NCBI RefSeq assembly: GCF_026547225.1
Contig: NZ_CP106878.1
Span: forward strand, 1 to 32,000
DNA length: 32,000 nucleotides
Source of the DNA: Fervidibacillus albus
GTDB taxonomy: Bacteria; Bacillota; Bacilli; Bacillales; Caldibacillaceae
Direction: 5' to 3'
Shown here piece by piece: positions 2,593-31,788 of this stretch. Each line of letters begins with the position of its first letter. The first letter of the stretch is position 1. The notes under the pieces were generated by a model that was given only the letters and a program-made list of their open reading frames with translations, was not told where the DNA came from and did not search any database. Position numbers and translations under genes: made by a program.

Positions 2593-2631
2593 GTGGGTCG
2601 GGGGGACAGGAACCTCGACCCACCTTTTTTT
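2593..2631 (+). terminator. intrinsic terminator of the fliDST unit, built from one GC-rich palindromic unit
   Basis: GTGGGTCGGGG-GGACAGGAA-CCTCGACCCAC gives an 11-bp stem with 1 mismatch, followed by CTTTTTTT. It starts 1 nt after the fliT stop. Confidence 0.75.
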
Positions 2632-2800
2632 GGAAATTGGGGGCTAGGTGGGCCAAGAGAACCGGAACCTTGACCCAATTTGTGACGGAAGCGGGCCAAA
2701 AGAACCGGAACCACGGCCCTGGGTCAAAAGAACCGGAACCTTGACCCACCACGACAAGAAAAAATCATTCGAAAACAGGGTCGGGATAGGAACTGGAACA
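2593..2800 (+). repeat. cluster A of the GC-rich palindromic unit family (4 copies plus 1 degenerate)
   Basis: Copies at 2593-2623, 2648-2677, 2691-2719 and 2720-2749, with a degenerate copy at 2778-2800. All have the GAACC core on the + strand. Confidence 0.85.
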
Positions 2801-3582: not shown

Positions 3583-3619
3583 ATTTTTGAATATAAAGAA
3601 GTATAAACGAAATTGTTTG

Positions 3620-3935
3620 AATCTGGGGATTTTCGTTAAAATTCGAGGGAATTTCGCGTTAATTCGAGGAAAATTTGTATGAATTCAAGGAAATTTCGAA
3701 TCAATTCGAGGAAAATTTGTATGAATTCAAGGAAATTCCGTGTCAATTTGAGGAAAATTAGCGTGAATTCGAGGAAATTCCGCGTTAATTTGAGGAAAAT
3801 TTGTATGAATTCGACGAAATTCCACAACAATTCAAAGAAAATTTGCATCAATTCGATTAAATTTTGCTTAAAACCGAGGAATTTCGACTTCAATTTGTAG
3901 AAATCTTGAGTAAACCCGAGAAAAATTCTGTAAAT
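3620..3935. repeat. tandem array of about 14 units of exactly 21 bp (consensus AATTCGAGGAAAWTTYSYRTN) with degenerate edge units
   Basis: Unit starts fall at 3640, 3661, 3682, 3703, 3724, 3745, 3766, 3787, 3808, 3829, 3850, 3871, 3892 and 3913, with no phase slip. Units 3661 and 3703 are identical. Alternating subtypes give a 42-bp higher-order repeat. Confidence 0.95.
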
Positions 3936-5660: not shown

Positions 5661-5822
5661 GGATCAAGGGGATCGCAACTTCGGTATTAAAGTGGGCCAA
5701 AAGAACCGGAACCCCGCCCCACCCCGCCCCACCAAAACTGGGTCAAGGGAACCGGAACCTCGACCCAGGGGAGCGGGTCAAAAAGTGGGTCAAAAGAACC
5801 GGAACCCCGCCCCACCTCGACC
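5661..5822 (+). repeat. cluster B of the GC-rich palindromic unit family (3 copies plus partials)
   Basis: Copies at 5692-5722, 5739-5767 and 5785-5815. Partials at 5661-5680 and 5772-5783. CCCGCCCCAC is duplicated locally at 5713-5732. The cluster starts 2 nt after the ggt stop. Confidence 0.85.
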
Positions 5823-7342: not shown

Positions 7343-7843
7343 TTACTGTCTGTTTTCTAACGTTTCTTCAATGATTTGTGTCGCTACATTAGGAATTTTT
7401 TCGTCTGTAAAACCGTAATACCAATCCAGATTCGTTTCAAAACGTTGGCTAAATTTCGCTACGATTTCATCCAATATCCCAACAGCTTCTTTATATACGC
7501 TTAAATCTTCCTCTGAAACATTGCCATCGTCAATTGCTTTTTCTAACACAGAATCGATCTCATCAAGCAATTCATTTGCTTCTCCGACAAATTCCAATTG
7601 TATCAAAAAGAATCGTTCAGCAATGCTCTCTATGTATTTTCGACCTTCCTCTGTTTTTGCTGCTTCATTCAGATCCACAGTCTTCATATCATCTAATGTT
7701 TGACTGATCGCGTACATCGATTCCTTCCAAACAGCACCAGCCTCTCTCTTCGCATCCATTGTTTTGCTATAAAAGTACACATTTGCTACGAGAGATATGA
7801 GTAATCCAATGATCACAGAAGGAATGACAATCTTCTTTTTCAT
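7343..7843 (-). CDS. hypothetical membrane-anchored protein (N-terminal TM helix, acidic helical ectodomain)
   Basis: 166 aa. RBS AAGGAGA lies 5 nt before the ATG. MKKKIVIPSVIIGLLISLVANVYFY looks like a signal-anchor. I recognise no family. Confidence 0.6.
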   Translation of the reverse strand: MKKKIVIPSVIIGLLISLVANVYFYSKTMDAKREAGAVWKESMYAISQTLDDMKTVDLNEAAKTEEGRKYIESIAERFFLIQLEFVGEANELLDEIDSVLEKAIDDGNVSEEDLSVYKEAVGILDEIVAKFSQRFETNLDWYYGFTDEKIPNVATQIIEETLENRQ

Positions 7844-8004
7844 TAGTTTCTCCTTTTCATTGTTTTCTTTTATTATAGCGCATAGCCAATATAACTTCTA
7901 ACAATTTTCCGTCTACAATGAATTGTCGGATATTTCACCGTAAAAAAGCTCTTGTTCGAACAATTAGAAATTAGCTTTTATGCCCCGATAATTAGTTGTC
8001 ATTC

Positions 8005-8718
8005 TTATAATTTTTCATTTATTAATTTTTTAACCTTTTGATAGGCAGCTAATTCAGACATTTCTAAAGGAGAATAATCACCTTCAGCTTGTGGTGGAAC
8101 AAACCGAGAAACTTTCCCATTTTTAATATTAAATTTTCCTTGATGTGCCCCTAATACAACATAATGTTCTTCATTCAATGATGATGCAAAAAAATCGGTC
8201 TTGTCAGCGAATAATAAGACTTTATCGTTCATTTCCATGTTTGGAACACCATTAAATACTACTTTCACTTTTTCTTTTAATTGTTCTTTAGGATAATCTT
8301 TAAATTTCTTTCCAATACCTGCTTCTTCTTTCGTTGTGATTCCTCCTGGCTCCATAACCGTTAAAACTTGCCCAACTTGAACGTCTCCTTTTAATACTTT
8401 TTCTACTTCTACATTCACTTTCGTATAAACAGTCCGATCTTCACCCACTTGCCAATTGAAAGACTCCGTTTCTAACACTTTTCCCTCAATGATTAGTGAA
8501 GCGTCTTCTGTAAGGTCCTCAATACTATTATATATTCTAGTAAAATCTACTTTTGTAACTATTTCATCCATCTTTTCTTCGGTACCTAATTGAGTCTGAT
8601 CTAATTTTACAGATGATTCAGCCAAACCAACTTCTTCACTTTTATTATCATTATAATTTAAATAAATTAACATACCTACTGTTAGAAGTGAAGCGATGAT
8701 AATCAGAGATTTTTTCAT
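8005..8718 (-). CDS. hypothetical secreted or membrane-anchored protein
   Basis: 237 aa counted from ATG 8718, which has the RBS AAAGGGAGA upstream. The ORF-track start at 8772 lacks an RBS. MKKSLIIIASLLTVGMLIYL looks like a signal-anchor, and the remainder looks beta-rich. The gene is AT-rich and I recognise no family. Confidence 0.55.
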   Translation of the reverse strand: MKKSLIIIASLLTVGMLIYLNYNDNKSEEVGLAESSVKLDQTQLGTEEKMDEIVTKVDFTRIYNSIEDLTEDASLIIEGKVLETESFNWQVGEDRTVYTKVNVEVEKVLKGDVQVGQVLTVMEPGGITTKEEAGIGKKFKDYPKEQLKEKVKVVFNGVPNMEMNDKVLLFADKTDFFASSLNEEHYVVLGAHQGKFNIKNGKVSRFVPPQAEGDYSPLEMSELAAYQKVKKLINEKL

Positions 8719-9278
8719 TTTCGATCTCCCTTTCATAAAATGAATATAAGTGATTGATTCCATATAAATCATCCGATTGCGCTACATTCACAGCTTTACC
8801 ATAGCCAATCGACCTATAACAGCATATTTATTTGAATCCCACTACATTAGAAATTTTACGATATTTTAGAAAAAAAATCAAACAAAATATTATGAATCTT
8901 TTATACAAATATAGTTAACAAAAGAACAATGAAGGAATGATGAGTGAATTACTTTTTAAATAGAGAATGAGAGGAAGGAGAAAAATTTGCCTAAGGAAGC
9001 ACGATGAAGTATAAAATGTGCTTACAAATTACACCTGAAAAAATTGCATGCAAATATTTGACTCAAACCACCTATAACCGATTGTTGTCACACATTACTG
9101 ATAATGTTAATATAAAAAATATGTTAAAATAAATGTGATTTGTAAAAATGTAGTGATCAACGAAAAACGAACATATTTCGTAAAATGTCCAACTTTCTAT
9201 TTTTAAACTTACCAATCGGATTTTAGGAACTATTTTGCACGGCCAAAAGGTTTTTTAATTTAAAGGAGCGTTGTTCAC

Positions 9279-12158: not shown

Positions 12159-13260
12159 ATGGAATTATCGGAAATTCGTAATGAGTTGGAAAAAACAGCT
12201 AAGCGATTAGCGGACTTTAGGGGGTCTCTTTGACTTAGAAAATAAAGAAACCCGGATTATGGAATTGGATGAAATCATGGCCGATCCGAATTTTTGGAAC
12301 GACCAAGAAAAAGCCCAATCCGTTATTAACGAAGCAAACGGATTGAAAGAGCAAGTGAATGAATTTAAAGAGCTAAATGAAATATACGAGAACCTAGAAA
12401 TTACTTTCGAACTTTTAAAGGAAGAAGAGGATCCCGATTTAAAGGCGGAATTGGAATCGGAGTTAGGTGTGTTAGGAAAAAGACTGAACGATTTCGAACT
12501 GCATCTTCTTCTAAGTGGACCTTATGATAAAAATAACGCCATTTTGGAACTACATCCCGGTGCGGGTGGAACGGAATCCCAAGACTGGGGCTCCATGTTG
12601 CTACGCATGTATACGCGTTGGGCAGAGAAAAAGGGGTTCAAAGTGGAAACGTTAGACTACTTGCCGGGTGACGAAGCCGGGATTAAAAGTGTCACCTTAT
12701 TAATTAAAGGACATAATGCATACGGTTATTTGAAAGCGGAAAAAGGGGTGCATCGTCTCGTACGGATTTCACCTTTCGATGCTTCCGGGCGCAGACATAC
12801 TTCCTTCGTATCCTGTGATGTTATGCCGGAGTTTACTGGAGACGTACAAGTTGATATTCGAAGTGAAGATTTAAAAATCGATACGTATCGTTCCAGTGGT
12901 GCAGGGGGTCAGCACGTCAATACGACCGATTCAGCCGTTCGGATTACCCATATTCCGACTGGGATTGTCGTTACTTGCCAATCGGAACGTTCGCAAATTC
13001 AAAACCGTGAAAAAGCGATGAATATGTTGAAAGGGAAATTGTATCAACGAAAATTGGAAGAACAAGAACGGGAATTGGCAGAGATTCGCGGAGAGCAAAA
13101 GGAAATCGGTTGGGGAAGCCAAATCCGTTCATACGTGTTCCATCCGTATTCGATGGTGAAGGATCATCGAACGAATGTGGAAGTTGGAAACGTACAAGCG
13201 GTGATGGACGGCGATATCGATCGATTCATCGATGCGTATTTACGCTCGACAATCCAATAA
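12159..13260 (+). CDS. prfB: peptide chain release factor 2, expressed by a programmed +1 frameshift (12159..12230 joined to 12232..13260)
   Basis: Frame 0 reads [24 protein letters not shown] and then stops at TGA 12231. The +1 frame continues [28 protein letters not shown] (RISPFD) and GGQ ([11 protein letters not shown]) motifs are present. Predicted product is 366 aa. Confidence 0.95.
12219..12234 (+). promoter_or_regulatory. RF2 autoregulatory +1 frameshift site
   Basis: AGGGGG TCT CTT TGA C: an SD-like AGGGGG lies 3 nt upstream of the slippery CTT and the in-frame TGA followed by C. This is the same architecture as E. coli and B. subtilis prfB. Confidence 0.92.
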
Positions 13261-13795: not shown

Positions 13796-14000
13796 GTGGG
13801 CCGAGGTTCCGGTTCTCTCAGCCCACTTTTTCGCTGGTGGGTCGAGGTTCCGGTTCTCTCAGCCCACTTTTTCGCTGGTGGGTCGAGGTTCCGGTTCTCT
13901 CGGCCCACTCCTCTCAGCCCACTCTCTCAGCCCACTTCATCCCAGTGGGTCAAAGGAACCGGAATCACGGCTCATTCCTTTGAATTCGAACCTCGACCAA
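13796..14000. repeat. cluster C of the GC-rich palindromic unit family: 3 x 41-bp tandem units in reverse orientation, partials, and one forward copy
   Basis: Reverse-orientation copies at 13796-13826, 13837-13867 and 13878-13908, each followed by TTTTTCGCTG (the first two) or by partial arms. Arm fragments at 13909-13935. A forward copy at 13945-13973. The first unit plus TTTTT probably terminates cccB. Confidence 0.85.
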
Positions 14001-14271
14001 CTTTTCCTTTGAATTCCAATAAAAAAGAAGAAAAAACCTGTTTTCATTTTTCTATTTTTCCGTATAATTATAAGCAAATAAAAATTTTTGACAAAATCCG
14101 CGGAGAAATTCTAGGTTTTAGGCCGATAGTCCTTATTTGAAATATAAATGTAAAATAATTTCATCTTATTTTGTCAAAATTTGATGATATAATGATTCTT
14201 GAGACCTACATATGCAAGGTTGAAAGAACACTAGTTGAACAAAATGACAGAAAATACAGGTGATTTGCAGA

Positions 14272-19995: not shown

Positions 19996-21576
19996 GTGAT
20001 TCGATTGTTCAAATCGTTTTCGTATTTAGTCGTACTCATGTTAATCGCGTTCAGTATGCCCCATCCGCTACTTGCCAATCCCGCTCCTTCCGAAAGACCG
20101 AACTTTTCCATGACAATTCTGCATACGAATGATAGTCACGGGCACGTTGAACGGTATCCGTTGTTAGCTACGGCGGTTCAACGATATGAAAAGGGAAATC
20201 GGCCGACATTACTTCTCCACGCCGGCGATGTGTTTACTGGGACGCTTTTTTTTACCGCGTATAAAGGAAAGGCCGATGTCGATTTTATGAATCAAATCGG
20301 CTACGACGCGATGGTAATTGGGAATCACGAATTCGATATTCATTCCGAAGCGTTAGCGAATTTTATTAACGATGCGAAATTCCCCCTCCTTACGTGCAAC
20401 ATCGATTTTTCAAACGACGATATCCTCCGCGAATTGTATACGGAGCAGATGGAAGTAGCCAAGGGGGGACGCGTTTATCCCGCTATCATTCAAACCGTTA
20501 ATGGGGAAAAAATTGGAATCATCGGAGCTACGACAGAACGTACCCCCGACATTTCCAATCCTCATCCTTCGATTCAATTTCTTAGTGCGAAAAAACGAAT
20601 AACTGAAATGGTTGACCGTTTCGAATCGATGGGAATGAATAAAATTATTTTGCTATCCCATTTAGGTCTTGCCATGGATAAACAAATCGCCAAACAAGTG
20701 GATGGGATCGATTGTATTATCGGTGGCCATTCCCATCATTCATTGAAAAAACCGATCTATATAAAAAAAGAAGAACCGACCATCATTGTGCAAAGCGGGG
20801 AGTATTTGGAACATTTAGGAGTTTTGAATGTAACGTTCAATCATCGAGGCGTCATTACAAAATTTGATGGAAAACTGTTGGAATTAAATGAAAACGATTT
20901 GACGAAGGATGAACAAATGGCCGAGTTGTTGGAACGCTATGAAAAGGGAATTGAACAACTGGCAAATACGAAAGTCGGAAAAACGGCCGTCTATTTGCAA
21001 GGAAAACGGAAAAAGGTACGTACGGGAGAAACGAATCTTGGAAATTTGATCGCTGACATTTTTTTGTGGAAGGCAAAAGATAAGGAACCGAAAACGCAAA
21101 TCGCTTTCATAAACGCCGGTAGCATCCGTACATCCATTTCCAAAGGGATTGTAACGGTGGCAGACATTCGAAATGTATTACCCTTCGAAAGTGAACTCGT
21201 CCTGTTACAGATAAAGGGAATGGATCTAATCGATATTTTGGAAAAGAGTGTAGCTCATTATCCGAAGGTGACGGGTGCTTTTTTACAAGTTTCTGGTATC
21301 CGTTTTTCTTTTAATCCGAAAGGGGAGCCAGGTGCGCGCATTGGAAAGGTGGAAGTAAAACAGGAGAATGGAGATTACTCACCAATTGATGGTACAAAAA
21401 CGTATTGGGTCGTGACAACGGAGTACTTAGCTAGGGGAAAAGAAGGATATGACATTTTAAAAAAATTTCCATTCGAGCAGTTATCCGTGAAAGATTATGA
21501 AGCTTTATCCGATTTTCTTCGACAAAAGGGGACCGTTGCGCCGAAAAAGGAAGGAAGAATTACGAAAATAAAGTGA
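19996..21576 (+). CDS. secreted bifunctional metallophosphatase/5'-nucleotidase
   Basis: 526 aa counted from GTG 19996, which follows AAGGAGGGG. Signal peptide VIRLFKSFSYLVVLMLIAFS..LLA. Calcineurin-like motifs HTNDSHGH, GDVFTG, GNHEFD and GGHSHH, plus a C-terminal 5'-nucleotidase domain. Confidence 0.88.
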   Translation: MIRLFKSFSYLVVLMLIAFSMPHPLLANPAPSERPNFSMTILHTNDSHGHVERYPLLATAVQRYEKGNRPTLLLHAGDVFTGTLFFTAYKGKADVDFMNQIGYDAMVIGNHEFDIHSEALANFINDAKFPLLTCNIDFSNDDILRELYTEQMEVAKGGRVYPAIIQTVNGEKIGIIGATTERTPDISNPHPSIQFLSAKKRITEMVDRFESMGMNKIILLSHLGLAMDKQIAKQVDGIDCIIGGHSHHSLKKPIYIKKEEPTIIVQSGEYLEHLGVLNVTFNHRGVITKFDGKLLELNENDLTKDEQMAELLERYEKGIEQLANTKVGKTAVYLQGKRKKVRTGETNLGNLIADIFLWKAKDKEPKTQIAFINAGSIRTSISKGIVTVADIRNVLPFESELVLLQIKGMDLIDILEKSVAHYPKVTGAFLQVSGIRFSFNPKGEPGARIGKVEVKQENGDYSPIDGTKTYWVVTTEYLARGKEGYDILKKFPFEQLSVKDYEALSDFLRQKGTVAPKKEGRITKIK

Positions 21577-21724
21577 GGAAACCTTTTCGCCTTCGAACAA
21601 AGAAGAAAAAGGAGAGAATTACGTAACGTACAACCTATTGGCCAAAGGAAAAAAATAAAATCGATATCATGACTAAGGGACAGGTCGAACACGGGATTTG
21701 TATTTCCGAAACATATAGGGTAAA

Positions 21725-21756
21725 AAAAGAACAAAGGAGTCCCCCTTTGTTCTTTT
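21725..21756. terminator. bidirectional terminator between the convergent nucleotidase and yebC genes
   Basis: A perfect 13-bp stem, AAAAGAACAAAGG / CCTTTGTTCTTTT, with a 6-nt loop. The A-run and T-run flanks give a U-tract on both strands. Confidence 0.8.
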
Positions 21757-21783
21757 ACTGTGAATTATTTACAGATCGACATT

Positions 21784-22503
21784 TCACTCACCTAAATCCA
21801 CATTATGGTATACCCGTTGTACGTCATCCAAATCTTCCAACACGTCGATCAATTTTTCAAATTGTTGTTTCGCCTCTTCTGTCAAAGTGACTTCATTTTG
21901 TGGAAGCATCGTCAATTCGGCGACCGTGAATTCGTCAATTCCAGCACCTTTCAACGTTTCTTGAACGGCATGGAATTGTTCCGGTTCGGCGTAAATAATG
22001 ACCGCGCCATCCTCTTCGAAAATATCCCGCACGTCTAAGTCTGCTTCCATTAAAATTTCCAATACATCGTCAGCCGTCTTTCCTTCTAGTCCGATGACAG
22101 CAGTAGAATCAAACATATACGAAACGGAACCGTTCACACCGAGATTGCCACCGTTTTTATTGAAAGCGGCACGGAGATCGGCTGCGGTCCGATTGACATT
22201 ATTTGTTAATGCATCGACGATAATCATCGAACCATTCGGGCCGAAACCTTCGTAGCGAAGCTCATCGTAATTTTCATCTGAACCACCCTTTGCCTTTTCG
22301 ATGGCCCGATCGATAATATGTCTCGGAACATTGTATGTTTTTGCCCGTTCGAGGACGAATTTTAACGCTTGGTTGGATTCGGGGTCGGGTACGCCTTGTT
22401 TTGCGGCCACATAAATTTCACGTCCGAATTTCGCATAAATACGACTCGTATTCTTATCCTTCATGGCCTTCTTTTCTTTAATGTTATTCCATTTACGTCC
22501 CAT
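21784..22503 (-). CDS. yebC: YebC/PmpR family DNA-binding transcriptional regulator
   Basis: 239 aa counted from ATG 22503. [30 protein letters not shown] is the canonical YebC N-terminus. Confidence 0.92.
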
Positions 22504-22801
22504 TACCAACACTCACCTTCATTAAAGTTTTACATGTCCATAGTAATACAAAAAGGCGGGATTCTACAATCATTTTTTCACGATCGTCACGAAATTACGC
22601 ATATTTTCAAACATTGTATGAAACGTTACAAAAATCGCGAAATTTAAAATCTGTGTTAGTTGACGAGGGAAGATCAATTTCGAAACGAAAATGATCAATT
22701 CCTGTTTGCACAAACGCCTTTTCAATACGTGGAAGAATCGACTCCTCCACATAAGTTGTCCCATTCTATCATAAAAATGGTTTACGAAGGGGGGACAGCT
22801 T

Positions 22802-24232
22802 TTGAAAAGACGAACGTTTATTATCCTATGGATCTGTTCGATGCTCGTTGCATCAGTATGTACGTACTTCGGGATTCAATTTTTTCCAAAATCAATGTTC
22901 ACCGGGCATGAAATCAGTAAGGAAGGAACGACGGTTGATTTATCCAAGGTGGAAAAAGCGGTGCAAATCATTTTGGAATCGTATGTGGAAGATGTGGATG
23001 AAAAGGTACTCGTAGAAGGGGCTGTGGAAGGGATGCTCGAACGATTACAAGATCCATACTCGGTTTATTTGAATGAAGAACAATCGAAGGAGTTTCGTCA
23101 ATCATTGGAATCATCCTTCGAAGGAATTGGTGCGGAAATTAGTGAAGTGGACGGGAAAATTTTAATTATATCTCCGTTGAAAAATTCGCCTGCAGAAAAG
23201 GCTGGACTGAAACCGTATGACGAAATCGTAGAGGTCGATGGAGAGCCGATTACAAATATGGACGTATACGATGTGATGATGAAAATTCGTGGGGAAAAGG
23301 GGACGAACGTATCTTTAAAAATTGTACGGGAAGGAATGCAAAAACCGATTGTTATCGACGTCCTTCGCGATCAAATTCCGATTGAAACTGTCTTTTCAAA
23401 TAACATTCACCATCAAAACAAAATCATCGGATATTTAGAAATTACGTCTTTTGCCCAAAATACGGGAAAGGATTTTGTACACCATTTGCACACTTTGGAA
23501 AAGGAAAAACTCGATGGACTCATCATCGACGTTCGGGGAAATCCGGGGGGACTGTTATCGAGTGTGGAAGAAATCGTCCAAGAAATTGTGACGAATGAAA
23601 AACCGTATGCACAAATCGAAGGGAAAAATGGAAAACGCCAACCGTTGTATACGAACCGAACGGAGAAAAAACCGTATCCGATCGTCGTATTGACGGATAA
23701 AGGGAGTGCATCGGCTTCAGAAATTTTAGCTGCAGCATTAAAGGAAGGCGAAGGGTACCCGCTTATCGGGGAAAAGACGTTCGGAAAGGGGACCGTCCAA
23801 CAACAAATTGAACTGGGGGATGACACTTTTATGAAATTGACGATGTATAAATGGTTGACTCCGAACGGCCGTTGGATTCACGGAAAAGGGATCGAGCCGG
23901 ATATAACAGTTGAACAATCGGATTTGTTTCACTTGCATCCGATTCAAATTGACCATCCCCTTGAAAAGGATATGAACAATGAACAAGTGAAATATGCCCA
24001 AGAACTTTTACAAACGATCGGTTTTGAACCGGGCCGAACAGACGGTTATTTTAACGAACGGACAGAACAGGCAGTGAAACATTTTCAACAAGAACACGAT
24101 TTGCCGACCACGGGCATAATTGACGACCGTACCGTTTACGAAATGGGAAAGATCGTCCTTCAAGAGATGAATAAGATGGAAAACGATCGACAGTTGCAAA
24201 TGGCATTGAAATATTTCGAATATAGTTCGTAA
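22802..24232 (+). CDS. ctpB: S41 carboxy-terminal processing protease with PDZ and C-terminal peptidoglycan-binding domains
   Basis: 476 aa. TTG start after GAAGGGGGG. N-terminal TM helix, PDZ domain (GAEISEVDGKILIISPLKNSPAEKAGLKPYDEIVEVDG), catalytic Ser in GSASASE and Lys in TFGKGT. PG_binding_1-like tail (GRTDGYFNERTEQAVKHFQQEHDLPTTGIIDDRT). The symbol is assigned by synteny (ftsX...ctpB-minJ). Confidence 0.8.
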   Translation: MKRRTFIILWICSMLVASVCTYFGIQFFPKSMFTGHEISKEGTTVDLSKVEKAVQIILESYVEDVDEKVLVEGAVEGMLERLQDPYSVYLNEEQSKEFRQSLESSFEGIGAEISEVDGKILIISPLKNSPAEKAGLKPYDEIVEVDGEPITNMDVYDVMMKIRGEKGTNVSLKIVREGMQKPIVIDVLRDQIPIETVFSNNIHHQNKIIGYLEITSFAQNTGKDFVHHLHTLEKEKLDGLIIDVRGNPGGLLSSVEEIVQEIVTNEKPYAQIEGKNGKRQPLYTNRTEKKPYPIVVLTDKGSASASEILAAALKEGEGYPLIGEKTFGKGTVQQQIELGDDTFMKLTMYKWLTPNGRWIHGKGIEPDITVEQSDLFHLHPIQIDHPLEKDMNNEQVKYAQELLQTIGFEPGRTDGYFNERTEQAVKHFQQEHDLPTTGIIDDRTVYEMGKIVLQEMNKMENDRQLQMALKYFEYSS

Positions 24233-24368
24233 AAGAAACGAGCGAATTTTCGAAGGAAAAGAAAACGCACTCCACGTCCAGATTATAGGTAGAAAATCAT
24301 ATAGGTTTTTCAAAAAATTTTTGCTAAAATAAAAGTAATAAACGTTTTGGACGAGGGGGTGCCCTTCA

Positions 24369-25559
24369 TTGGAAGATGGACTTTTACAAATACTTTTCGG
24401 AATCGGCAAATTTTTTCTCCATCCGTTATTGTATCTTGGACTTTTTTATGCGATTTATCTCGGTTACATTCGGGTGAAACGGGAGAGAAAAGATTTCCAT
24501 ATTCGTGTACAAGACGGCTGGTTTGAAGCTCGTACATACTTGGCGAAAGGGTTCATCCCGGGAGTCCTATTGTCGGTCGTCATTTTTCTCATCGGGTTTC
24601 ACGTATCCCTCTCCTTCGTCATTCTATCGGGATTCGTCATCTTATTGTTCGGGCTCCTATTGAAACCGGGCCTCCTTTCCCCTGCCTTTACGATTGGCTT
24701 TACCTTTTTCTTTCTGTTTGCGATGGATGCTTTCCAATGGGAACTGTCAATTTTAAATATTACCCTTTCGACGAATGACGGAGGGTTCCTTTCCGAAATC
24801 GCTCTACTTATCGGTTTTATGGTCATCGTTGAAGGATGGTTGATTCAAAGAAACGGCTCGAAACATACGTCTCCGAAAATCATCCGAAGTAGACGGGGCT
24901 TAAAGGTTGGCATCCATGAATCGAAAAGGATATGGCTCGTTCCACTGCTTTTCCTTATTCCAGAGGGGAGTTTTTCGTCACCTTTCGATTTTTGGCCGGT
25001 CGTCCCCGTAGGTAGTGAAACGTTCTCGGTTTTACTCGTTCCGTATTGGATCGGTTTTTCCCAACAAATCCGAATTTCTTTGCCAAAGGAAGGACTACGT
25101 GCGATTGGAAGGCAAGTGATTTTCGTCGGGTTTATCGCAACGGTCTTCGGTGTTGTTAGTTTTTCGTACCCGATGTTATCGATCGTCGCCGTTCTTTTCG
25201 CGATGGTCGGAAGAATCGTGATTCCGATCGTTCAACGGTTTCAAAATAACACCTATCCGTATTATTTTTCGAAAAACGAACGGGGAATCGTCGTATTAGA
25301 CATTATTCCCGGTTCACCGGCGGAAAAAATGGGCATCCAAATCGGGGAAATAATAAAAACAGTCAATGGAATATCCGTCGCTAACGAACAAGAATATTAC
25401 GCGGCTTTGCAACGAAATCGGGCGTTTTGCAAATTGGAAGTTATCGACGAACAAGGTGAGAACCGGCTCGTCAATCGTGCCCTTTATGAAGGCGAGCATC
25501 ATGAACTCGGTGTCATCTTCATCGATGCAGAAAAACAGTGGGACACCGATGCAGGATAA
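24369..25559 (+). CDS. minJ: polytopic membrane protein with C-terminal PDZ domain, MinJ-like division-site determinant
   Basis: 396 aa. TTG start after GAGGGGG. Multiple TM helices and a C-terminal PDZ domain (VLDIIPGSPAEKMGIQIGEIIKTVNG). Size, architecture and position after ctpB match B. subtilis MinJ (YvjD). Confidence 0.65.
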   Translation: MEDGLLQILFGIGKFFLHPLLYLGLFYAIYLGYIRVKRERKDFHIRVQDGWFEARTYLAKGFIPGVLLSVVIFLIGFHVSLSFVILSGFVILLFGLLLKPGLLSPAFTIGFTFFFLFAMDAFQWELSILNITLSTNDGGFLSEIALLIGFMVIVEGWLIQRNGSKHTSPKIIRSRRGLKVGIHESKRIWLVPLLFLIPEGSFSSPFDFWPVVPVGSETFSVLLVPYWIGFSQQIRISLPKEGLRAIGRQVIFVGFIATVFGVVSFSYPMLSIVAVLFAMVGRIVIPIVQRFQNNTYPYYFSKNERGIVVLDIIPGSPAEKMGIQIGEIIKTVNGISVANEQEYYAALQRNRAFCKLEVIDEQGENRLVNRALYEGEHHELGVIFIDAEKQWDTDAG

Positions 25560-25564
25560 TTCCA

Positions 25565-25606
25565 GTGGGTCGAAGGTGGGTCGAGGGGACGCGAACCTCG
25601 ACCCAC
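25565..25606. repeat. cluster D: one perfect GC-rich palindromic unit plus a half-copy, a likely terminator between convergent genes
   Basis: Half-copy GTGGGTCGAAG at 25565-25575. The full unit at 25576-25606, GTGGGTCGAGG-GGACGCGAA-CCTCGACCCAC, has a perfect 11-bp stem. Confidence 0.85.
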
Positions 25607-25655
25607 TTGCGTCATTTTATGAAGTTTCCGCCCCCCTTTTTATAGACCACATCAT

Positions 25656-26429
25656 TCATCCTCTCCTTTCATCTCCTCTCACGTCCGTCAACTTCTCCGC
25701 TCTCCCTCGTCGTTGTTTTTCACGAAACACAAGCCAAATGAACAAACTAAAAACGATCAAAAGTCCCTCCATCGAAACGATATACCACGGATACGGTCCT
25801 AAAAGATTGAGTAAACTTGCAATTTCTGGTTTTCGGCTTAAAAACATATAATTTCCCCCGGTCCAATGATTCACGAGCAAAATAATTGGTAGTAAGACAT
25901 TTAAAAATAGGACGATTTTTACAACCGATCGAATCGTCGGCCGGTATTCTTTAACCCACGTGTAATACAGAGCGATCCAAATCATAACGATATGTGTGTA
26001 AAAAAAGTGGATAAATCGGAAATGGGGGAAATTGTAATGCAAAAGCGGTGTCGCAATCGCCTGGGTTGCACCTAAGAGGGCGGTAAACAAAAACAATTCA
26101 TAAACGGCTTTTTTCTCTGTCAAAAGCAAAATAATGGCCAAGATTAAACTAATATTACAAAGTTCGAGGGGAAGGGATTGATACGTATGCCAAATGCCGT
26201 TTTTATACATCCAATAATGGTAAGCTGATTCAAAAATGATAAGGGAGATGGCGATTCCAATCCCGATTTTTCTAAAAGACCATTTTGCCAATCTCCTTTG
26301 AAAAATGAAAATAATCGCTGCTCCGGCAAAAAATAAAACGAGCATAAACAGATGGGTCGCAGAAAACATTTGAAACGGATTGTCCTCATACATAATGCCG
26401 AACCAATTCACCTTTTCCCTCCCTTTCAT
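25656..26429 (-). CDS. TIGR02206/YwaF-type integral membrane protein
   Basis: About 257 aa with seven or more TM helices and a conserved-looking LPLELCN motif. GGGAGG lies 5 nt before ATG 26429. GTG 26411 is an alternative start. The family assignment is from memory of YwaF-like proteins. Confidence 0.65.
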   Translation of the reverse strand: MKGREKVNWFGIMYEDNPFQMFSATHLFMLVLFFAGAAIIFIFQRRLAKWSFRKIGIGIAISLIIFESAYHYWMYKNGIWHTYQSLPLELCNISLILAIILLLTEKKAVYELFLFTALLGATQAIATPLLHYNFPHFRFIHFFYTHIVMIWIALYYTWVKEYRPTIRSVVKIVLFLNVLLPIILLVNHWTGGNYMFLSRKPEIASLLNLLGPYPWYIVSMEGLLIVFSLFIWLVFREKQRRGRAEKLTDVRGDERRG

Positions 26430-26645
26430 TGAATCCTCCCACAAAATAAAATAGACGTCCGGTTTCTTTTATTTTACGTAATTGTTACCAAAGGGGAAAC
26501 ATCGAAAACGTCCAGCGCATAAAAAATCGAAAAAGACATATTTCAAAAAAATGTAACAAAGGTAAAACACTGTCATCTTTTTCATGGCGAAAGCGTTTTA
26601 CAGGAAAAGTATGAATTAAACAATGTTTATAGGAGGGTCAGCCCC

Positions 26646-26762
26646 TTGGAAGCGCGGGAACGGATTTTACAAACGACGATGAATTTGATTAGTGAAGAAG
26701 GGTTTGAGATGCTCACGTCGTTGCGGAAGATTGCCAAAAAAGCAAAGGGCCAAAGGATTTAG
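26646..26762 (+). pseudogene. truncated TetR-family regulator (N-terminal HTH fragment only, 38 codons)
   Basis: AGGAGGG RBS followed by a TTG start. The translation LEARERILQTTMNLISEEGFEMLTSLRKIAKKAKGQRI* matches the start of the TetR_N HTH pattern (RERIL..A..L..E.GF...S...IA..AG). It stops where the AT-rich block containing the convergent small gene begins. Confidence 0.55.
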
Positions 26763-26779
26763 AAGATCAATGAATACAA

Positions 26780-27079
26780 TCAGGATTGTTGAGCAGGATC
26801 TTTCTTTGAAGCACTGATCATTAATAAAATTGCAGTGATGATATGCAAAGTCATACCGACGAATGGAATCCATCCAACACAAGAGGTAACGATGCCTAAA
26901 ATGCTTGGAGCTATTTCGCTATCTTCTTTTAAACTAAAGACTAATGTTACAATATGAAGGATTAGCATTACGATTAAAGGGGTCCATAAAAACCCGATAA
27001 TAATACTTGCACCAATAATCGGAATACCTAAAAATGCCTCCATTCCTCCAGTGACCCATTTTAAAACTTTTGAAACCAT
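26780..27079 (-). CDS. small hydrophobic membrane protein (99 aa, about 3 TM helices), function unknown
   Basis: GGAGG lies 6 nt before the ATG. There is an internal repeat of a G(I/W)IP(I/F)xG...HI(V/I)T pattern. The surrounding DNA is AT-rich. Confidence 0.6.
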   Translation of the reverse strand: MVSKVLKWVTGGMEAFLGIPIIGASIIIGFLWTPLIVMLILHIVTLVFSLKEDSEIAPSILGIVTSCVGWIPFVGMTLHIITAILLMISASKKDPAQQS

Positions 27080-27450
27080 AAATGGCCTCCTTTCACTAAT
27101 ATAGTTATAGGATTATAAATGCATTTTATAATAACTTTCAAACAGATACAATGAATCGTATTAATATTTTATCTGTTAATAAATTACTAAAAAATTTTAT
27201 CGGTATATTCAACCTGTTTACAATTAAATCCTTTATGCAAATATCCCCATTTTTTATGCAAAATGGTTTTTGAATGATCTTCATTTAATAAAAGGTAGCA
27301 AAGCATTCGTAGTTATGAATCTGTGGAATAAACGTTTTTTCTAATTCGTTTTCTTGGAATTGTACGATCGTGAGTAGAGTTAGGTCCTATTTATTATTGC
27401 AAGATATAGAAACTGACGGGGGAAGAAGGTTCGAATTGAATAAAAACAAT

Positions 27451-27479
27451 TTGTATAGTATAGGGGGGTATAGTATAAT
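27451..27479 (+). promoter_or_regulatory. sigma-A type promoter of csoR-copZ-copA with a candidate CsoR operator in the spacer
   Basis: TTGTAT, 17 nt, TATAAT. The spacer holds TATAGTATA-GGGGGG-TATAGTATA, so the G6 tract at 27463-27468 is flanked by direct 9-mers. ATAGTATAGGGGGGTAT resembles the B. subtilis copZA operator ATACCCTACGGGGGTAT as recalled from memory. Confidence 0.5.
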
Positions 27480-27544
27480 ATAATTACCGTACAATATTAC
27501 TACGAATTTTCGTTTGTTAATATGTCTATGAAAGGGGGAAGAAA

Positions 27545-27880
27545 ATGGTTGATATGGAATTGAGCGAGCAGTCGGGGGTTTTGGGTGATACGTGTAGCAA
27601 TCGAAAAAGCCATCATTCAGAGGCAACGAAAAAAAACTTGATTAACCGTCTAAACCGAATCGAAGGTCAAATTCGTGGAGTAAAAGGGTTGATTGAAAAG
27701 GACACATATTGCGATGATGTCTTAAACCAAATTGCATCCATTCAATCCGCATTAAACGGGGTTTCGAAAATTCTCCTTGAAGGCCATTTGAAAACATGTG
27801 TTGTCGAACGGATTCAAGATGGAGATATGGACGTATTGGATGAGTTTCTCGGAACGATCCAGCGAGTGATGAAAAAATAA
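27545..27880 (+). CDS. csoR: copper-sensing transcriptional repressor CsoR
   Basis: 111 aa. NRLNRIEGQIRGVKGLIEKDTYCDDVLNQI...EGHLKTCV carries the C-H-C Cu(I) ligand pattern of CsoR. RBS AAGGGGGAA. Confidence 0.93.
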   Translation: MVDMELSEQSGVLGDTCSNRKSHHSEATKKNLINRLNRIEGQIRGVKGLIEKDTYCDDVLNQIASIQSALNGVSKILLEGHLKTCVVERIQDGDMDVLDEFLGTIQRVMKK

Positions 27881-28061
27881 AATTGGACAAAACGGATTTC
27901 CCTTCGCTTTTTCAAGAAAGTTTTGAGGCGGATTAATAAAGGAAAAACCCAAGCCATTGGACACTTTAATAAAAAAGGAGATTGAAGGGGAGACGTTCAT
28001 TTCACCGGATATTCAGTACAAAAATCAACTTATGATTAAAAATTAGAAAGGAGAAAGATCA

Positions 28062-28265
28062 ATGGAAAAAGTAACGTTAGAAGTACAAGGAATGTCTTGT
28101 CAACATTGTGTAAAGGCAGTGGAAGGAAGTGTGGGCGCATTAAACGGTGTCGCAAACGTCGTCGTTCACCTTCAAGAAGGAAAGGTCGATGTGGAATTCA
28201 ACCCAGGAGTCGTATCTTTAGAAGCAATCAAAGAAACAATCGAAGACGAAGGATATGAAGTGTAA
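28062..28265 (+). CDS. copZ: copper chaperone CopZ
   Basis: 67-aa HMA domain with the GMSCQHC metal-binding motif. RBS AAAGGAGAAAG. Confidence 0.95.
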   Translation: MEKVTLEVQGMSCQHCVKAVEGSVGALNGVANVVVHLQEGKVDVEFNPGVVSLEAIKETIEDEGYEV

Positions 28266-28279
28266 TTCGACTAACCAAA

Positions 28280-28578
28280 GTGGGTCGAGGGTGGGTCGAG
28301 GGGACAGGAACCTTGACCCAGAACGAGCGAAAGTGTGCCAAGGGGACAGGAACTTTGAACCAGGATGAGCGAAAGTGTGCCAGGCCAAGGGGACAGGAAC
28401 CTTGACCCAGAACGAGCGAAAGTGTGCCAAGGGGACAGGAACCTTGACCCAGGATGAGCGAAAGTGGGCCAAGGGGACAGGAACCTTGACCCAGGATGAG
28501 CGAAAGTGGGCCAAGGGGACAGGAACCTTGACCCAGAATGAGCGAAAGTGGGCCAAAAGAACCGGAACCACGACCCAC
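28280..28578 (+). repeat. cluster E: 7 tandem copies (period 42 bp, one 47 bp) of the GC-rich palindromic unit plus the conserved linker RRAYGAGCGAAA
   Basis: Units at 28291-28320, 28333-28362, 28375-28409, 28422-28451, 28464-28493, 28506-28535 and 28548-28578, with a half-copy at 28280-28290. The array occupies almost the whole 337-bp copZ-copA spacer. Confidence 0.95.
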
Positions 28579-28602
28579 TTCGGCGAGATAGAGGTGTGAA
28601 CT

Positions 28603-31029
28603 ATGGCAACGAATAAAAAAGAAGTCACTTTCCAAATTACCGGAATGACATGTGCGGCTTGTGCAAACCGGATTGAAAAAGGCTTAAAAAAAATCGATGG
28701 CGTCGAACAGGCGAATGTGAACTTGGCGTTGGAGAAGGCGAAAATTACATTCGATCCGGAAAAAACCGACCAAACGGCTTTCCAACAAAAAATTCGCGCT
28801 CTCGGCTACGATGTCGTCACTAATCGTGTAGAATTCGACATTACCGGAATGAGTTGTGCGGCCTGTGCGAACCGAATCGAAAAAAGCTTGAACAAAATGG
28901 ATGGAATTACCGAAGCTTCCGTCAACCTCGCTTTGGAAAACGCAACGGTACAATACAATCCACAACTCGTATCAACAGACGACATCATCGGTCGAATCGA
29001 AAAACTCGGCTACGGTGCATTGGATAAAGCGAATCAAAATGAGGAACAAGGAGATCTTCGAGAACGGGAAATCCGGAAACAATGGCGAAAATTTTTTATA
29101 TCTGCACTCCTTTCCTTCCCGTTATTATGGACGATGGTTGGCCATTTTTCTTTTACGTCCTTTTTATACGTACCTGAACTGTTCATGAATCCGTGGGTAC
29201 AATGGCTACTTGCCACACCGGTCCAGTTTCTGATTGGATGGCAATTTTACACGGGTGCTTATAAAGCGTTGAAAAATAAAAGTGCGAATATGGACGTTTT
29301 GGTCGCCATGGGAACGTCAGCCGCATATTTTTATAGTCTATTTTTAATTTTTCGCTCCCTTTTAGCAAATGAGTCTCCACCCGTCCTCTACTTTGAGACG
29401 AGTGCAGTGCTAATCACCCTTATTTTGCTAGGGAAATATTTCGAAGCGAAGGCGAAGGGGCGTTCATCGGAAGCAATTAAAAAATTGATGGGCTTAAAAC
29501 CGAAGACAGCAACGGTTATCCGAGACGATAAGGAACAAACCATCCCACTAGATGAAGTAATCGTCGGCGATGTGATTCAAATTCGTCCCGGTGAAAAAAT
29601 ACCAGTAGACGGTATCATTTTATCCGGGCAATCGGCGGTCGATGAATCAATGTTAACCGGAGAAAGCATTCCTGTCGATAAAAGAAAAGGGGATTTCGTA
29701 TTCGGTGCAACGATGAATCAAAACGGCTTTTTACAAATGAAAGCGACAAAGGTCGGAAAGGATACGGCCCTTGCCCAAATCATTCAAGTCGTGGAAGAAG
29801 CTCAAGGATCGAAGCCGCCTATTCAACGGTTAGCCGATCAAATCTCCGGTATCTTTGTTCCAGTAGTCATCACAATTAGCATCATCACATTTTTCATTTG
29901 GTATTTATGGTTAGAACCGGGGCAATTTGCTGAAGCATTGGAAAACATGATTGCCGTTTTAGTCATTGCGTGTCCGTGTGCGTTAGGATTGGCAACTCCA
30001 ACATCCATTATGGCCGGGTCAGGCAGGGCAGCGGAATTCGGCATATTATTTAAAAGCGGCGAACATTTAGAACAAACGCATAAAATTGATACGGTTGTTC
30101 TCGATAAAACGGGAACGGTCACAAACGGAAAACCGACGTTGACAAACGTGCACCTTGTAAATGGATGGGATGAAACACAAATTTTACAAATGATCGGTAC
30201 TGCTGAACGAAATTCTGAGCATCCGCTAGCTAAGGCGATTGTAGAAGGGATACGTGAAAGGGGAATTTCCTTTCTCGATTCTGAACGTTTTCAATCCATT
30301 CCCGGTTTCGGTATTGAGGCAATCGTGCGTGGCAAAAAGGTTCTTGTTGGAACGAGGCGACTAATGAGTGAAAACGGCATCGAATTTCAGGACGTATCGG
30401 TGAAAGTAGAGCAATTGGAAGAGGATGGAAAAACGGTCATGTATGTGGCGATTGATGGACAATTTGCAGGGCTCGTTGCCGTGGCAGATACGATCAAATC
30501 GACTTCTAAGCAGGCTGTAAAACGACTTCTTGATATGGGATTGGATGTTGTAATGATTACGGGAGACAATGAACGAACGGCCCGAGCAGTCGCAAAACAA
30601 GCGGGGATTCAAACGGTGATTGCAGAAGTACTTCCGGAAGATAAGGCGAAGGAAATTCGAAGCTTGCAACAAGAAGGAAAACGGGTGGCGATGGTCGGCG
30701 ATGGAATAAACGATGCCCCGGCCCTTGCAATGGCGGATATTGGGATTGCCATCGGTACAGGTACGGATGTGGCGATGGAAGCGGCAGATGTGACGTTGAT
30801 CCGCGGCGATTTAAACGGAATTGCCGATGCGATGTACATGAGTGGAAAAACGATTCAAAATATCCGGCAAAACTTGTTTTGGGCTTTTGCCTACAATTCG
30901 GTCGGTATTCCAATTGCGGCGATGGGCTTTTTAGCTCCGTGGCTCGCCGGTGCTGCAATGGCTTTCAGTTCTGTTACAGTCGTTCTGAACGCATTGCGGT
31001 TACAACGGGTGAAAATAAGTCACGGTTGA
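28603..31029 (+). CDS. copA: copper-translocating P1B-type ATPase CopA
   Basis: 808 aa. Two N-terminal HMA domains (GMTCAAC and GMSCAAC), the membrane CPC motif, the phosphorylation site DKTGT, and the hinge [17 protein letters not shown] lies 6 nt before the ATG. Confidence 0.98.
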
Positions 31030-31226
31030 AGATTGATAATAGAAGGATATTCGATTGGGAAAAGTGATATGAATTGTGTTATTAGGACGATCCAACATTT
31101 GTAAACAAAATTCGTATGACAAAGAGATTGCCAAACGCATCATTGACGAAGAAGCAGGTAAACGTAAGAAAACTAGCACTCCTTTTCCCTCGTTTTTTTA
31201 AAACCAAAAGGAAATTATATTAAAAT

Positions 31227-31278
31227 AATTGTCGTCGACCTCCAGTAGTGCAAAAAACCCGGGGGATCGACGACAATT
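31227..31278. repeat. perfect 12-bp inverted repeat with a 28-nt loop
   Basis: AATTGTCGTCGA (31227-31238) pairs with TCGACGACAATT (31267-31278). The loop contains AAAAAACCCGGGGGA. TGTGATTTTTT follows. Confidence 0.8.
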
Positions 31279-31336
31279 TGTGATTTTTTCACAAACTCTA
31301 TTTATCCTTGTTCTAACAACATTTTTCAATAACTAG

Positions 31337-31365
31337 TTGTCAAAAAAATGCCACTTTGTTATAAT
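31337..31365 (+). promoter_or_regulatory. candidate CRISPR leader promoter
   Basis: TTGTCA, 17 nt, TATAAT, with an extended -10 (TGtTATAAT). It lies about 55 nt upstream of the first repeat inside an AT-rich leader. Confidence 0.6.
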
Positions 31366-31418
31366 ATTTCTGAAAAATCGTACAACCAAAAAATGTTGAT
31401 TTACCAACATTTTTTAGG

Positions 31419-31788
31419 GTTTTGATCTTACCTATGAGGGATTGAAACTATAAATCTTCATTGCGTGTCTGTTATAATATTCATAACGTTTTGATCTTAC
31501 CTATGAGGGATTGAAACTCACCACCTCTTATCGTCAATTTTAATCTGTTCTTCGTTTTGATCTTACCTATGAGGGATTGAAACTGCGACGACATCTAGTT
31601 TGTCGCAGGTCGATGATAGTTTTGATCTTACCTATGAGGGATTGAAACACAAAAAAATTGCGCCCGATCACGCTCAATTGGACGAGTTTTGATCTTACCT
31701 TCCATTCCAGCCAATTGGCGTTGTTTTTTTGCTTTGTCTAGTAGATTATTTGCTTTAGTTTTTCTCCTACCTTTAAAGGGTTAGGAAC
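31419..31788 (+). CRISPR. small CRISPR array: 4 identical 30-bp repeats, 4 spacers, then a truncated and a degenerate terminal repeat
   Basis: The repeat GTTTTGATCTTACCTATGAGGGATTGAAAC occurs at 31419, 31488, 31554 and 31619. Spacers are 39, 36, 35 and 37 bp. The fifth repeat matches only over its first 15 nt (31686-31700). A degenerate repeat, GTTTTTCTCCTACCTTTAAAGGGTTAGGAAC, lies at 31758-31788. The ATTGAAAC 3' end is typical of type I/III repeats. Confidence 0.9.

Follow-up and report, generated by a model that had tools for sequence, protein, structure and literature searches.

Most REP elements are located downstream of a coding region, and part of them have been co-opted as terminators or as mRNA stabilisers (PMC3733652, PMC3337134, PMC3184786). 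Inside operons, REP copies in the malE-malF and hisJ-hisQ spacers of E. coli and Salmonella favour the upstream fragments of the message, according to references cited in PMC3184786, a source that also records the use of MIRU units for genotyping. A GTRG or GTGG degeneracy occurs in a few REP families, with a GTGG tag for one family only (PMC3733652), and a Firmicute carries the terminator-like repeat SPRITE near the 3' ends of its coding sequences (PMC3049150). REP-like families in Bacillaceae are poorly documented. Here we describe such a family in a 32,000-nt stretch of the Fervidibacillus albus genome (the window), and we consider it likely that the array of palindromes between the copper genes copZ and copA of this bacterium is a local tandem expansion of it, that is, of a lineage-restricted, dispersed, GC-rich REP-like palindromic repeat with a terminator-like form. 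Copies of the family follow closely on the ends of many genes in F. albus and in its sister species F. halotolerans, and the cop array is therefore best regarded as an ordinary REP-like element and not as a purpose-built copper switch.

The copZ-copA gap reported by a sequence-only reading of this DNA was confirmed in its length of 337 bp, as was the copA ribosome-binding site GAGGTG that follows the last unit; the distance from that unit to the copA start codon is 24 nt (Table 1). Tandem Repeats Finder placed the array at 28291-28577, with a period of 42, 6.7 copies, 86% matches, 4% indels and a score of 410. Read by hand, it consists of six units made of a 30-nt palindrome and the 12-nt linker RRAYGAGCGAAA. 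The seven 42-bp units first proposed thus keep their period and their single 5-nt insertion, and the count is to be amended to six such units, one palindrome that lacks the linker and has a different loop subtype, and an additional half arm. The arrangement of a half arm followed by a full copy at the head of the array recurs at 25566-25606, and all seven cop units stand in direct orientation. The near-identity ascribed to the units was overstated, given the 86% matches and the stem mutations in units 2-4, where a G-to-T change is found in the stem and folding is weak on both strands. Decay of three units out of seven counts against selection on each hairpin, and with the poor hairpins predicted for units 2-4 the array is, as modelled, a weaker barrier than its length implies. 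A CRISPR reading of the array was rejected, since unique spacers are lacking, the 12-nt linker is itself repeated and Rfam gave no match. A CRISPR array does lie just downstream of copA (31419-31648, continuing towards the window end; Rfam CRISPR-DR2, repeat GTTTTGATCTTACCTATGAGGGATTGAAAC), and F. halotolerans has the same one, followed by cas6, cas7, cas5, cas3 and cas4.

Table 1. Features of the cop locus and palindrome clusters, in window positions; energies are those of predicted hairpins
Feature	Position	Strand	Remarks
fliT cluster, 4 copies	2593..2749	+	begins 2 nt past the stop codon of the fliT-like gene
ggt cluster, 3 copies	5692..5815	+	begins 33 nt past the ggt stop codon; linker GGGAGCGGGTCAAAAA joins two copies
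cccB cluster	13796..13975	.	begins 4 nt past the stop codon of the cytochrome c gene; three tandem 41-bp units in opposite orientation
PDZ-gene cluster, half arm and one full copy	25566..25606	+	7 nt past the stop codon; convergent genes
Putative promoter and CsoR operator ahead of csoR	27430..27485	+	TTGTAT, 17 nt with ATAGGGGGGTAT, TATAAT; read directly
csoR, copper-sensing repressor	27545..27880	+	Pfam PF02583 Trns_repr_metal, E 2.9e-29
copZ, copper chaperone, one HMA domain	28062..28265	+	Pfam PF00403, E 1.4e-17
copZ-copA spacer	28266-28602		337 bp
Extra left half arm	28280..28290	+	GTGGGTCGAGG, ahead of unit 1
Unit 1	28291..28332	+	palindrome GTGGGTCGAGGGGACAGGAACCTTGACCCA and linker GAACGAGCGAAA; sense -17.2 kcal/mol, antisense -12.1 kcal/mol
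Unit 2, decayed	28333..28374	+	GTGTGCC... and ACTTTGAACCA; weak hairpin on either strand, sense -3.9 kcal/mol, antisense -1.6 kcal/mol
Unit 3, 47 bp	28375..28421	+	5-nt insertion; left arm GTGTGCCAGGCCAAGG vs GTGTGCCAAGG; sense -8.3 kcal/mol, antisense -12.7 kcal/mol
Unit 4, weak hairpin	28422..28463	+	G-to-T change in left arm; sense -6.6 kcal/mol, antisense -8.6 kcal/mol
Unit 5, intact	28464..28505	+	sense -12.4 kcal/mol (C-A mismatch), antisense -15.7 kcal/mol (G-U)
Unit 6, intact	28506..28547	+	one linker base different from unit 5
Unit 7, no linker, other loop subtype	28548..28578	+	AAAAGAACCGGAACCAC; GTGGGCCAAAAGAACCGGAACCACGACCCAC; sense -6.6 kcal/mol, antisense -11.5 kcal/mol
copA ribosome-binding site	28591..28596	+	GAGGTG; 12 nt past the last unit
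copA, copper-exporting P-type ATPase, two HMA domains	28603..31029	+	Pfam matches

A degenerate 30-mer for the palindrome matched the window 23 times against 0.00 expected from shuffled sequence, and an nhmmer profile of the 31-nt core gave 19 matches at five loci of the 32-kb window, all of them intergenic. All five clusters follow the stop codon of a + strand gene at a distance of 2-33 nt, the genes being fliT-like, ggt, one for a cytochrome c (cccB), one with a PDZ domain, and copZ. The neighbours of four clusters are co-directional, those of the fifth convergent. The view of the array as a design specific to the cop genes, taken by a reader who had missed the four other loci, is not supported by this distribution. 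The basic module is the 31-nt imperfect palindrome GTGGGYCRARRGRACMGGAACCYYGRCCCAC, with an 11-bp stem (10-11 bp), a 9-nt loop, about 60% GC for the element and a core that ends in GTGG in 16 of 21 copies. It often has AAA ahead of it, so that the other strand often reads as the palindrome followed by TTT(TT)CGCT. The AGCGAAA of the cop linker is the reverse complement of the TTTTTCGCT found after each hairpin of the 41-bp cccB array, and at the ggt locus two copies are joined by a related linker; on this comparison the cop linker is part of the repeat family and not a cop-only feature.

Most copies at the other loci share the orientation of the cop units, and mixed orientations occur only in the cop spacer of F. 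halotolerans and at the cccB locus, where one copy in + orientation comes after the three opposite ones. GC skew identifies the + strand as the leading strand, so orientation relative to transcription and orientation relative to replication are confounded in this window. Neither the 32-kb window (Pfam) nor the called genes of loci L025 and L026 include a gene for RAYT, an IS200/IS605-like tyrosine transposase, and no other mobilising protein was identified. That the family has been mobile is suggested by the loop sequence, which plays no part in the structure and is nonetheless shared between unlinked loci. Two further features of the window were seen in passing: an AT-rich tandem array in the hpf-ggt interval (3598-3933; 21-bp period, 42-bp higher order, unit about AATTCGAGGAAATTTCGCATC, ~16 copies), which has a longer array of a related 21-mer at the conserved orthologous position in F. 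halotolerans (L026 5910-6562), and a classic prfB +1 programmed frameshift site at 12215-12235, where CTTTGAC follows the Shine-Dalgarno-like AGGGGG.

The history of the family was read from a comparison at the species level between the two Fervidibacillus genomes present in a collection of 5.8 billion proteins. A search for exact matches to CopZ and CopA of the window gave no record. CopA and SecA of the window are 100% identical to F. albus proteins. Identity between F. halotolerans and the window is 85% for CopA and 95% for SecA (71% and 86-87% for the next relatives), the two species are syntenic over the compared part (window 20099-31656), and at the F. halotolerans SecA locus the gene order agrees with the remainder of the window. 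In the 43 kb of F. halotolerans examined we counted ~20 matches at five loci, of which four are orthologous to the sites behind fliT, ggt, cccB and copZ and one follows chrA. Copy numbers and arrangements at the orthologous loci differ between the two species, and we take the clusters to be old and fixed in position, with copy number shifting locus by locus. The first fliT unit is identical over all 31 nt of the core (F. halotolerans L026 4997-5027), and the cccB terminator unit is a single hairpin followed by TTTTTT in F. halotolerans and three tandem units in F. albus. Conservation of position between the species indicates little recent movement.

The F. halotolerans copZ-copA spacer measures 140 bp and holds ~3-5 units (about three full and two partial) in mixed orientation, without the AGCGAAA linker. 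Set side by side, the two spacers show elements that evidently predate the split of F. albus from F. halotolerans, and an amplification of the 42-bp palindrome-plus-linker module to six copies that evidently took place in F. albus only and after the split; the recent expansion proposed earlier is in this respect borne out. At the orthologue of the 25566-25606 site, F. halotolerans has a terminator after the PDZ-domain gene (GTGGGTTAGGGGGACAAGGATCTCCCTTTTTTT, L001 6393-6425) that resembles a decayed family copy and whose left arm overlaps the stop codon. In the convergent spacer after that gene a distinct short repeat, GGATCTAATCGGCCGATYCC, occurs twice (L001 6470-6560). Two F. albus genes without a Pfam match (166 and 255 aa, 7343-8772 on the - strand) lie between chrA and secA and are missing from the F. 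halotolerans chrA-secA interval, which has three copies of the palindrome family instead.

Beyond these two genomes, no member of the family was found at 22 further loci around copA relatives, most of them from Bacillales. A degenerate 28-mer found a single match in a metagenome collection, inside a high-GC coding region and attributable to chance, and BLAST of the spacer against plasmid and phage collections gave no match. Rfam returned nothing on the array, either at gathering thresholds over the whole window or at E up to 1 over the spacer. The family appears to be undescribed, with no Rfam model and with occurrences in two genomes only.

Folding of the individual units gives five of the seven cop units a better structure as antisense RNA, with units 1 and 2 better as sense. 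The C-A mismatch that was claimed for every sense stem is present in units 3-6, and unit 1 reverses the pattern, being fully paired on the sense strand. Across 21 copies of the family, pairing extends to 87.7% of stem cells on the strand trailed by TTT..CGCT and to 76.8% on the other, against 23-54% in a slid-partner control; G-U cells number 34 and 10, respectively, and the difference between the strands arises because G-U stands on one strand where the other has C-A. This G-U/C-A asymmetry is a property of the entire dispersed family. The earlier description of an array oriented to fold best as antisense RNA is thus right for most of the units and lacks support where it treats the orientation as part of a cop design. 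Compensatory change in the stems of the 21 copies did not exceed shuffle controls, and the counts therefore give no independent proof of a selected RNA fold. A global fold of the 337-nt spacer (z-score -2.0 sense, -4.2 antisense) is uninformative because the repeats cross-pair, and per-unit and span-limited folds were used in its place.

Some members of the family have the shape of an intrinsic terminator. They stand at operon ends: the hairpin of the first fliT unit (-20.9 kcal/mol) is followed by CTTTTTTT and the first two hairpins of the cccB array by TTTTTCGCTG on the + strand, and a U-tract is present in both cases, with 7 U at 2593-2630 and 5 U at 13796-13877. A consensus terminator scan is blind to every hairpin of the family because it allows loops of 3-8 nt and the family loops have 9 nt. 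The cop array was rejected as an intrinsic terminator: its sense strand carries no U-tract, as had been noted before, with only 0-2 U in the 8 nt past each hairpin, and its antisense U content is below the usual criteria. T makes up 11.6% of the sense strand of the spacer and never stands in runs longer than 3; the longest run in the F. halotolerans spacer is 2.

A consensus scan found no sigma-70-like promoter within the spacer or between the array and copA, so that transcription of copA most likely starts at the CsoR-controlled promoter ahead of csoR and runs through the array. This putative promoter and operator, nearly identical in F. halotolerans (L001 9316-9362), would drive csoR-copZ-copA as a single operon; the scan did not list it because its -35 hexamer is weak. 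Sequestration of the copA ribosome-binding site by the right arm of unit 7 was also considered. The predicted pairing (CACUUC/GAGGUG, 6 bp) is weak and not conserved in F. halotolerans, and was therefore dropped as a mechanism; in a span-limited fold the site is predicted to be about half unpaired. Several other Bacillaceae (L002-L015) have a different layout, with a terminator-like hairpin ACGTGC..GCACGT and a T-run directly after copZ (e.g., L007 10247-10314) and a CsoR-box-like palindrome, ATACCC-N-GGGTAT, immediately ahead of the copA ribosome-binding site, which suggests separate CsoR control of copA in those species. The Fervidibacillus copZ-copA spacer has neither the post-copZ terminator-like hairpin nor the CsoR-box-like palindrome.

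The account that we favour begins with a terminator-derived element at a gene 3' end, the usual residence of the family. Its palindrome-plus-linker module was probably amplified by slippage or by unequal recombination or exchange, and only terminator-incompetent forms of the element would have been tolerated at the copZ-copA position. We propose that the array persists inside an operon because the form present there cannot terminate sense transcription. The intact sense hairpins (units 1, 5 and 6; -12 to -17 kcal/mol) may act as passive barriers to 3'-to-5' exonucleases, and by analogy with REP elements such a barrier would favour csoR-copZ fragments over copA. We saw no sign that the array arose to serve that end. 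Read-through, processing, stabilisation of the upstream message and the origin of the expansion are the steps that we infer here. A regulatory role in the CopZ:CopA ratio is, by the same analogy, plausible, and a dedicated part in regulating copper homeostasis is conceivable but lacks support.

Among the alternatives, the one that survives best is that the array is neutral, selfish or slippage-generated DNA without measurable effect on cop expression, a possibility that we take seriously while thinking it unlikely. The decay of units 2-4 and the variable copy number at each orthologous locus fit it, and a copA ribosome-binding site predicted to be about half unpaired means that translation is not blocked. 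However, intact GC-rich hairpins of the stability given above would be expected to impede 3' exonucleases in mRNA, and the lack of sense U-tracts in either species suggests that selection has filtered the forms allowed in the spacer.

Alternatively, the array could be a selected device specific to the cop genes, with hairpins that protect a processed csoR-copZ message or attenuate copA and so yield a high CopZ:CopA ratio. Elements have been retained in the spacer of both species, the terminator-like hairpin after copZ in other Bacillaceae suggests that uncoupling of copZ from copA is common, and enterobacterial REP elements in intercistronic spacers act in this way, at least in the references cited in PMC3184786. 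This idea strikes us as improbable, however, given that the family also follows the unrelated fliT, ggt and cccB genes and the PDZ-domain gene, that three of the seven units are decayed, that the two species differ in the number and layout of their units, and that the array lacks any copper-responsive feature. A broader and equally speculative proposal is that Fervidibacillus possesses a portable terminator repeat system hitherto undescribed in the Bacillaceae, in which copies with a T-run would end operons and tandem copies without one would block exonucleases and uncouple cistrons. In the same proposal, the structure would be selected on one RNA or ssDNA strand and copies would persist across species at the same gene 3' ends. 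If it were true, the cop locus would produce the chaperone, CopZ, in larger amounts than the pump, CopA.

Less probable still is a stack of terminators that blocks antisense transcription coming from copA. The better antisense folds of five units, the UUUCGCUC that follows six of the seven antisense hairpins and the better pairing of the whole family on that strand all point in this direction, and the sequence-only reading had called these hairpins terminator-like. The U content speaks against that description: UUU gives way to CGCUC, with 4 U in 8 nt (3 at unit 3, 1 at unit 1) and no run longer than 3, less than is usually required of an intrinsic terminator. A search for antisense promoters gave no convincing site, the best candidate being a 9/12 match inside copA that is no better than shuffled sequence. 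Copies of this orientation also occur where the downstream gene is itself on the + strand, which leaves nothing to block, and the F. halotolerans spacer has mixed orientations. Finally, a translated or MIRU-like repeat, in which an ORF through the array with a 14-codon period (predicted repeat peptide GTGTLTQ[ND]ERK) couples copZ to copA, is scarcely credible: although the 42-bp period is divisible by 3 and one + phase is open (ORFs 28280-28405 and 28375-28599, the second stopping 3 nt short of the copA ATG), the frame is lost at the 5-nt insertion, there is no overlap of the ORFs with the copZ stop codon, array ORFs on both strands lack a Pfam match, the period of the sister array at cccB is 41, and F. 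halotolerans has no equivalent ORF.

An expansion of a dispersed REP-like repeat, the reading that we favour, makes this locus a small clean case of the spread of terminator-shaped repeats, their persistence at orthologous gene ends and their tandem expansion, and of how selection might filter the form of a repeat that is tolerated inside an operon as against at its end. It also counsels caution in copper biology, where annotating the array as a small RNA or a regulatory element specific to cop would first require transcript data. Stop codons are missing from the GC-rich units, and the long mechanical ORFs of 114-136 aa that consequently extend through the arrays are likely to be mis-called as genes; genome annotation should suppress such spurious array ORFs, examples being those at 13796-14140 and the three across 28218-28635.

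How, then, does the Fervidibacillus element compare with the systems described elsewhere? The REP-like analogy drawn by the sequence-only reading was correct. As in REP families, we find a GC-rich imperfect palindrome of ~30 nt in extragenic copies, dispersed over five loci of the window and mostly just downstream of genes, single as well as clustered, with conserved linkers, also between cistrons of operons, and with some copies possibly co-opted as terminators. Of the properties by which REP elements are recognised, the short imperfect palindrome (20-40 bp) and the position downstream of genes are both present; the end is GTGG and not GTAG, which is the RAYT cleavage site in GTAG-type REPs or REPtrons, where the repeats flank a RAYT gene, and the host belongs to the Bacillaceae. 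Because GTRG or GTGG degeneracy is known from some REP families, the GTGG end does not exclude kinship. The composite forms of REP differ in their orientation. BIMEs and REPINs alternate, whereas the units of the cop array are all direct, and this excludes a REPIN, in which two inverted REPs form one long hairpin (definition in PMC3337134); a BIME, with alternating REPs and conserved linkers (PMC3337134), is matched in the repeated linker and not in the orientation.

In the Firmicutes the likeness to pneumococcal SPRITE is closest in setting, with a low-GC host, a hairpin and T-rich tract near the 3' ends of coding sequences, occurrence in close relatives only and a proposed co-option as terminator (PMC3049150). 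SPRITE is, however, ~105 bp long and AT-rich with an 18-bp duplex, whereas the Fervidibacillus element has 31-42 bp, ~60% GC and a stem of 10-11 bp, and it forms direct tandem arrays. BOX of pneumococcus is likewise a dispersed Firmicute repeat with an internal module, boxB (~45 bp), in variable tandem number and with orientation-dependent effects on neighbouring genes (PMC3049150), which we count as a likeness; its boxA and boxC ends with terminal inverted repeats have no counterpart in flanking modules at the cop array.

The tandem arrangement itself has a parallel outside the Firmicute repeats just discussed. MIRUs (mycobacterial interspersed repetitive units) occur as direct tandem arrays whose copy number varies. 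As described in the account of them in PMC3184786, they are also intergenic units of 40-100 bp inside polycistronic operons and are co-transcribed, but their ORF ends overlap the flanking genes and they are not simple palindromic hairpins, whereas in the cop array the frame is broken and nothing overlaps. SPRITE is thus nearest as regards the type of host and the terminator-like placement at the 3' ends of genes, and BOX is resembled in the variable tandem module; in size and composition the element departs from both. What is new is a lineage-restricted member of the REP-like families; the kind itself is already known.
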